DNA of 64,000 bases from Escherichia coli (GTDB lineage Bacteria > Pseudomonadota > Gammaproteobacteria > Enterobacterales > Enterobacteriaceae), in NCBI RefSeq assembly GCF_046105845.1, contig NZ_CP151004.1; one strand, written 5' to 3'. The stretch's first letter is position 1, and each line of letters begins with the position of its first letter. A program made the position numbers and the translations under genes. The notes under the pieces are model-generated. The model saw only the letters and a program-made list of their open reading frames with translations. It was not told the DNA's origin and did no database searches. Positions 59,556 to 59,632 of this stretch are shown piece by piece.

Positions 59556-59580
59556 GCCTGATAAGCGTAGCGCATCAGGC
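59556..59580. repeat. REP (palindromic unit) element
   Basis: gcctgataagcgtagcgcatcaggc matches the canonical E. coli REP consensus. Confidence 0.85.
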
Positions 59581-59603
59581 TATTTTGCATTTGTCATCAG
59601 CCG

Positions 59604-59632
59604 CCGTCACCCCGACAGTATCGGGGTGACGG
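59604..59632. repeat. Perfect 12-bp-stem hairpin (ccgtcaccccga...tcggggtgacgg) just downstream of ybiT
   Basis: Perfect inverted repeat with 5-nt loop, 9 nt past the ybiT stop; no clear U-tract on either strand. Confidence 0.6.

Follow-up and report, generated by a model that had tools for sequence, protein, structure and literature searches.

Organization of the ybiT-ybiU intergenic region

The DNA analyzed is a stretch of 64,000 nucleotides from Escherichia coli (contig NZ_CP151004.1 of assembly GCF_046105845.1), which we refer to as the window. The region described here lies between two convergent genes, ybiU and ybiT, and contains a repetitive extragenic palindrome (REP) and a perfect hairpin (Table 1). 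An earlier sequence-only reading of this DNA had placed a canonical REP between the two genes, followed 23 nt later by a perfect 12-bp inverted repeat with a cagta loop. Both features are present as described, with the correction that the REP lacks its usual CTAC tail. An inverted-repeat search recovered the hairpin with arms of 12 nt that are 100% complementary and separated by 5 nt. The same reading had located the hairpin 9 nt past the ybiT stop, and the stem does begin at the ninth nucleotide, after an intervening 8 nt.

Table 1. Features of the ybiT-ybiU region in the window and their K-12 MG1655 counterparts.
Feature	Genome	Position	Strand	Remarks
ybiU (DUF1479)	window	58214-59473	+	convergent with ybiT; ORF list and annotated E. 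coli matches
rut-like C-rich, G-poor stretch	window	59441-59520	- (ybiT sense)	27 C and 8 G in 80 nt
outer-stem 5' arm (+ strand) enclosing the REP	window	59532-59544		pairs imperfectly with 59587-59599 (85%)
REP gcctgataagcgtagcgcatcaggc	window	59556-59580		reads GCCTGATGCGCTACGCTTATCAGGC on the - strand; one copy in the window allele, without CTAC tail
linker between REP and hairpin, 23 nt	window	59581-59603		59587-59599 is the 3' arm of the outer stem around the REP
perfect hairpin, 12-bp stem, 5-nt loop	window	59604-59632	both	single-copy, without U tract, -25 kcal/mol on either strand
hairpin left arm ccgtcaccccga	window	59604-59615		
hairpin loop cagta	window	59616-59620		
hairpin right arm tcggggtgacgg	window	59621-59632		
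stop-to-hairpin spacer, 8 nt, GUUAUUAU in ybiT sense	window	59633-59640	-	
ybiT stop codon TAA	window	59641-59643	-	
ybiT CDS	window	59641-61233	-	ABC-F ATPase, 530 aa; ORF list and annotated E. coli matches
ybiT	MG1655	855963-857555	+	
hairpin	MG1655	857564-857592		
ybiU	MG1655	857796-859061	-	

The REP is nested in two imperfect inverted repeats, one formed by 59532-59544 and 59587-59599 (85%) and the other by 59498-59509 and 59547-59558 (92% complementary). The 5' arm of the former, referred to here as the outer stem, is homologous to the K-12 position of the 3' end at 857740 (see below). On the ybiT-sense strand, the rut-like stretch follows just downstream of the REP and spans the remaining intergenic region and the end of the antisense ybiU gene.

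Stability and copy number of the hairpin

Folding, a check that had been proposed together with the sequence-only reading, gave -25 kcal/mol for the hairpin on both strands, with z-scores of -5.1 to -6.6. The REP folds with about -13 kcal/mol, so that the hairpin is approximately twice as stable. Two loci in the 64-kb window carry a perfect hairpin with a stem of 12 bp or more, whereas 100 Markov simulations gave 0.03 hits per window; the hairpin is thus more than a chance occurrence. The other such locus (16607-16637) has a 13-bp stem followed by a T run, TTTTTTATTT, and is a canonical terminator on the + strand. A perfect 10-bp hairpin, AAGGGGGAGA/TCTCCCCCTT, is also located at 38602-38626, between two - strand ORFs.

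The 29-nt palindrome occurs at one locus in the window and, in the 3640 genomes that contain it, at a median of one place each. It is therefore not a repeat family, and a search of Rfam assigned it to no family at the required threshold, so that the genome-wide copy check suggested earlier leaves no named repeat to which it could belong. The only Rfam match, to naRNA4, scores 13 bits against a gathering score of 59.5 and reflects similarity to REPs. We also considered whether the hairpin is a remnant of an ERIC element, and rejected this because 176 of 500 shuffles gave a local alignment that was as good or better.

In its stem, the hairpin resembles an intrinsic terminator, with 12 bp, nine of them G-C pairs, and the fold energy given above. 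The U tract of about 7-8 nt that directly follows the stem of such a terminator is absent: the tails after the stem are CGGCUGAUGA in the ybiT sense and AUAAUAACUU in the ybiU sense, and neither strand carries a U tract. A scan for promoter and terminator consensus sequences found nothing at the hairpin site.

The REP element and its alleles

The REP is present in 5425 of 5426 E. coli genomes, with at least 40 places per genome and the upper limit of the count reached in 4888 records; it is thus a true multicopy element. The copy at 59556-59580 fits the imperfect palindrome of the E. coli REP consensus, GCCTGATGCG...CTTATCAGGC, and is identical to the ybiT-proximal REP of K-12. The flanking CTAC/GTAG tetranucleotide is missing: the window reads ...TATCAGGC directly joined to ATTAAG, versus ...TATCAGGCCTACGC in K-12. 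The one-REP allele lost this tail at its junction, where the window REP joins the flank that follows the distal REP of K-12.

A BIME, comprising two inverted REPs and a short motif, is not found at this place in the window, which has one REP. The window is not K-12. Two REPs are present in K-12, in B2 strains and in others, and the 73 nt by which K-12 exceeds the window correspond to a second, inverted REP and a spacer. The window (59547-59560) and K-12 (loci L001 and L086) have the junction ATCAGGC in common, a pattern that suggests either a deletion between two REPs or the insertion of a REP pair. Additionally, three of the genomes examined have IS621, a member of the IS110 family with a bridge-RNA recombinase, inserted at their ybiT-proximal REP directly behind ...CTTATCAGGCC: E. 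coli EC14 (L003:480-710), LAM_HS (L090) and 1517k (L092). The targeting of REPs by IS621 has already been published (PMC1525189, PMC11208160).

Allelic variation of the hairpin in Escherichia

The 5426 E. coli genomes fall into three classes with respect to the hairpin. The version seen in the window (type A) is present in about 3640 genomes and a second version (type B, CAGTAGCCCTGA...TCAGGGCTACTG) in about 1170, and about 614 genomes have no hairpin. The hairpin of E. albertii is of type B. Between types A and B, 4 of the 12 base pairs have changed, each with compensation, C-G being replaced by A-U twice, A-U by G-C once and C-G by U-A once. An alignment of eight sequences has 97.9% of its cells paired, compared to 26-49% when the partners are slid by 1-3 columns, and none of 500 shuffles of this alignment matched the observed pairing or covariation score.

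Divergence between the two types was compared by segment. The stem differs at 8 of 24 nt, the loop at 2 of 5, the linker at 6 of 23 and the spacer at 0 of 8, compared to 3 of 300 for the final 300 nt of ybiT. The compensated changes and the divergence of the individual segments together indicate that the helix has been kept while the sequence of its stem changes fast. To judge from these sequences, the structure looks to be selected or otherwise maintained, with the caveats that the four compensated changes lie on one haplotype and may reflect few events, and that template switching within a palindrome can restore pairing without selection. The spacer is 8 nt long in every Escherichia allele seen, with variation in its sequence at single positions.

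The neighborhood of the hairpin also varies among genomes. In all four type-B E. coli that were inspected, ybiU is absent from its place next to ybiT; ybiV is found there in three and an IS621 insertion in one. In the former (L004, L088 and L089, among them strain S88), ybiV is directly convergent with ybiT, and the hairpin and two REPs are kept. One genome labelled as E. coli (L006) carries a type A hairpin and no REP at all. In two others, 2020N21-246-1 (L087) and 1517k (L092), the stem is interrupted midway by one G.G mismatch that is not compensated, CCGTCAGCCCGA. The two hairpin-less genomes that were inspected (L005 and L091) encode a YbiT of 531 aa, which is directly followed by an ERIC element; a gene for a glycoside hydrolase of family 31 and the ERIC stand in place of the hairpin, the REP and ybiU. 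An ERIC that is nearly identical likewise follows ybiT in loci from Citrobacter, Enterobacter, Pseudescherichia and Pluralibacter (L008, L009, L019, L021, L028, L031 and L062). As the hairpin is missing from about 614 E. coli genomes, it is dispensable.

Structures following ybiT in other Enterobacterales

We compared 80 ybiT loci of Enterobacterales, a sample that includes two loci from Escherichia and none from Salmonella or E. fergusonii. Among these 80 loci, the palindrome pattern is restricted to Escherichia. A helix of 8 bp or more without interruption is nevertheless found within the first 60 nt after ybiT in 58 of 78 loci, and 50 of these helices begin no more than 25 nt from the stop codon. 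The median fold energy after ybiT is -21.3 kcal/mol, compared to -12.5 kcal/mol for shuffled sequences. Since helices of unrelated sequence are found in 58 of 78 loci, a stem-loop after ybiT appears to be a persistent feature that undergoes sequence turnover. True terminators, recognized by a U tract, account for at least 19 of the 77 loci scanned, a lower bound because the strict scan misses terminators in which the A tract pairs with the U tract. Many loci are without one, and the remaining elements after ybiT are hairpins that lack a U tract or repeats, ERIC among them.

Transcript ends of ybiT in K-12

All transcript data discussed here are from K-12 MG1655, and thus from the two-REP allele, not the one-REP allele of the window. 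SMRT-Cappable-seq defines a single ybiT unit, with a transcription start site (TSS) at 855933 and a termination site (TTS) at 857716 that is labelled 'novelTTS' (PMC6131387). The 101 reads from this start comprise 37 that stop at the TTS, 11 that extend up to 50 bp past it and 5 that continue farther downstream (PMC6131387). The remaining 48 stop short of the called TTS; that source does not give their positions. The TRS analysis of RNAtag-seq data places strong termini at 857719 (adjusted p from 1e-22 to 1e-36) and at 857740 (PMC10687069). These ends can be assigned to predicted RNA helices. Positions 857716-857719 lie 3-6 nt after the distal REP, at the 3' base of a predicted BIME helix, and 857740 is at the base of the predicted outer stem that encloses both K-12 REPs. 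By homology, the ybiT transcripts of the window allele are predicted to end at about 59550-59553 and at 59529 on the - strand.

The strong ybiT ends are 124-148 nt beyond the hairpin, and the three published termini tables that cover this locus in K-12 list no 3' end at the 3' base of the hairpin. The dominant steady-state end therefore does not directly follow this stem-loop, the ends lying after the REP/BIME helices instead. The curated Term-seq list of Adams 2021 likewise contains no 3' end for ybiT, the PLoS Genetics supplements of Dar and Sorek and those of RepRanger contain no entry for this gene, and a literature search combining ybiT with terminator, UTR, Hfq or ProQ found nothing relevant.

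A weak terminus has been reported at 857557 in LB RNAtag-seq (adjusted p of 0.004, 0.0025 and 1; rank 1734; PMC10687069). It is significant in two of three replicates and lies 2 nt past the ybiT stop and 7 nt before the hairpin, at a position homologous to about 59639 of the window (- strand). It is absent from the second termini table of the same study (file 4) and from the SMRT-Cappable-seq data. This terminus could result from cleavage at a stalled ribosome, or could be a ligation, coverage or library artefact beside a stable helix.

A Rho termination region has been mapped at 857953 on the + strand (the ybiT sense), within the 3' part of the antisense ybiU gene (Adams 2021, PMC7815308). 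Reads upstream and downstream of this point number 64 and 12 in untreated cells, versus 75 and 98 with bicyclomycin, for a Rho score of 6.97 and a p value of 1.1e-9 (PMC7815308); the counts are taken over windows of 800 nt on each side, so that the resolution is about 800 nt. Read-through beyond ybiT is thus Rho-dependent in K-12. The rut-like stretch at 59441-59520 of the window is consistent with this mapped region.

The published K-12 data contain no Rho-insensitive 3' ends at the base of the stem: ends are found at 857716-857719 and 857740, and not at 857592-857600. The hairpin is not a terminator. The sequence-only reading had already argued against a classical terminator from the missing U tract, and the tails, the silent terminator scan, the K-12 transcripts that run through the hairpin and the Rho-sensitive read-through all agree with it on this point. 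That reading had also suggested 3'-end maps as a check, taking the view that transcripts that do not end at the hairpin would count against its own proposal; in the K-12 maps, they do not end there.

Possible roles of the hairpin

The palindrome could act as DNA, as an operator bound by a dimeric protein. Its form, a perfect inverted repeat around 5 central base pairs, would be appropriate, and a protein-binding site had been put forward earlier. However, 4 of the 12 half-site positions differ between alleles within a single genus, always symmetrically, which speaks against a sequence-specific operator; the palindrome is also single-copy, and it is flanked by the ends of two genes, without a promoter-like sequence close by. 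We consider an operator highly improbable. A different possibility is that the hairpin is a neutral relic, either the stem of an old intrinsic terminator whose U tract has disappeared or a palindrome that intrastrand template switching in replicating DNA keeps perfect, and that it is functionless now that REPs provide the 3' ends. Several observations fit such an origin, including the genomes that lack the hairpin and have the 531-aa YbiT variant, the contrast between the rapidly changing stem and the nearly constant adjacent gene, the canonical terminators at the same position in many other genera and the existence of the G.G mismatch allele. Against it stand the perfect 12-bp pairing that the two deeply diverged alleles and E. 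albertii all retain despite drift of the loop and linker, and the persistence of the helix in alleles with and without REPs, and we regard this explanation as fairly unlikely.

Two further explanations assign the RNA structure an active part in termination. The hairpin might pause RNA polymerase or terminate it in part, possibly in both directions, and so aid Rho-dependent or collision-based termination. The genes on its two sides converge, its folding is as favorable on one strand as on the other, almost half of the SMRT-Cappable-seq reads (48 of 101) end upstream of the called TTS, and weak intrinsic terminators that are backed by Rho may exist (Dar and Sorek, PMC6061677). Neither side of the hairpin has a U tract or an A tract, however, no TTS or terminus is located at its 3' base in the three tables covering the locus, and the full read-through in the presence of bicyclomycin (75 reads upstream vs 98 downstream) argues against much Rho-independent stopping. 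We give such a leaky or accessory element little credence. It is similarly doubtful that the hairpin is a roadblock to translation termination, in which a stem-loop 8 nt past the stop, at the entrance of the mRNA channel, would slow termination, provoke cleavage near the stop and lower the amount of YbiT. The constant 8-nt spacing in Escherichia and the weak terminus at 857557 are consistent with this mechanism, and an effect of this kind has been reported for REPs located less than 16 nt from a stop codon (Liang 2015, as quoted in PMC12306157). The terminus is marginal, though, and may be an artefact near a stable helix, and short distances between stop and hairpin are common for the ordinary terminators that follow ybiT in other genera. 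The more specific proposal that the fixed distance is functional, stalling terminating ribosomes on the ybiT mRNA to give the 857557 end so that a structured roadblock tunes YbiT expression, is improbable in our estimation. If true, it would place YbiT, itself an ABC-F ribosome-associated factor, in a possible autoregulatory loop.

We favor, as the somewhat more probable reading, a role for the hairpin as an RNA stem-loop in the 3' UTR of ybiT, in which a Rho-terminated transcript is trimmed back to the REP helices and the hairpin forms an inner barrier. The scheme is the one that Dar and Sorek describe for Rho-dependent genes (PMC6061677). RNA polymerase transcribes through the hairpin and the REP. 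Rho would then load on the rut-like stretch that follows the REP and end transcription diffusely inside the antisense ybiU gene. The ragged ends would be trimmed by 3'-to-5' exonucleases to the first stable helices, those of the REP and the surrounding outer stem, which would set the main steady-state 3' ends of ybiT. The 12-bp hairpin would represent the inner, last and stronger barrier before the ybiT coding region, and the sole barrier in the REP-less allele. For the convergent transcripts of ybiU or ybiV, it would be the first (outermost) barrier that exonucleases meet.

The layout of the site, the single copy of the hairpin, its conserved pairing and, in K-12, the read-through and its Rho sensitivity are established; we infer that the hairpin blocks exonucleases and that its pairing has been kept for that reason. 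No published K-12 3' end is located at the 3' base of the hairpin, and, because the K-12 ends are at the REP/BIME helices, the hairpin would be at most a secondary barrier there, or a barrier for the transcript of the opposite strand. A role as RNA (or single-strand) structure fits the four compensated pairs. The earlier suggestion of an mRNA 3' stabilizer has indirect support and is plausible in a secondary sense only, since the main ends in K-12 are not at the hairpin.

The significance of these findings beyond annotation is small. The locus is a clean example of an E. coli gene end without an intrinsic terminator, in which the parts can be seen side by side: a locus-specific stem-loop that lacks a U tract, REP helices at which the observed 3' ends are set, a rut-like stretch and, in the convergent gene, termination by Rho. 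The natural alleles, with zero, one or two REPs, an IS621 insertion, an ERIC replacement and two compensated versions of the hairpin, could provide a ready-made series for testing the part that each structure plays in mRNA stability.

Comparison with known systems

The closest parallel is with Rho-dependent E. coli genes that have protective stem-loops without U tracts and a downstream stretch with more C than G (Dar and Sorek 2018, PMC6061677). Like these stem-loops, the ybiT hairpin is stable, GC-rich and located right after the gene, with neither a U tract nor an upstream A tract; the downstream read-through is Rho-sensitive, and a stretch with more C than G is found farther downstream of ybiT. 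Unlike in those systems, the K-12 ybiT ends lie after the REP/BIME helices, and the rut-like stretch follows the REP and not the hairpin.

REP and BIME sequences are known as stabilizers of mRNA 3' ends (Newbury et al. 1987; Khemici and Carpousis 2004, both as cited in PMC6061677). The ybiT locus shares with them the adjacent REP and the K-12 transcript ends at the base of a REP helix. In contrast, the hairpin itself is single-copy, unrelated to REPs in sequence and about twice as stable (-25 vs -13 kcal/mol). The ribosome-stalling, stop-proximal REPs of Liang, Rudd and Deutscher 2015, as quoted in PMC12306157, offer a related comparison: the ybiT hairpin, 8 nt from the stop, falls within the distance given there, but it is not a REP.

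With intrinsic terminators, the hairpin has in common a typical stem length, loop size and fold energy, and several genera have a true terminator at this position. It differs from them in the missing U tract, in the transcripts that read through it and in the bicyclomycin sensitivity of downstream transcription. The hairpin is, therefore, not a new kind of element; it is a 3'-UTR structure of a known kind that had lacked annotation, located beside an ordinary REP.
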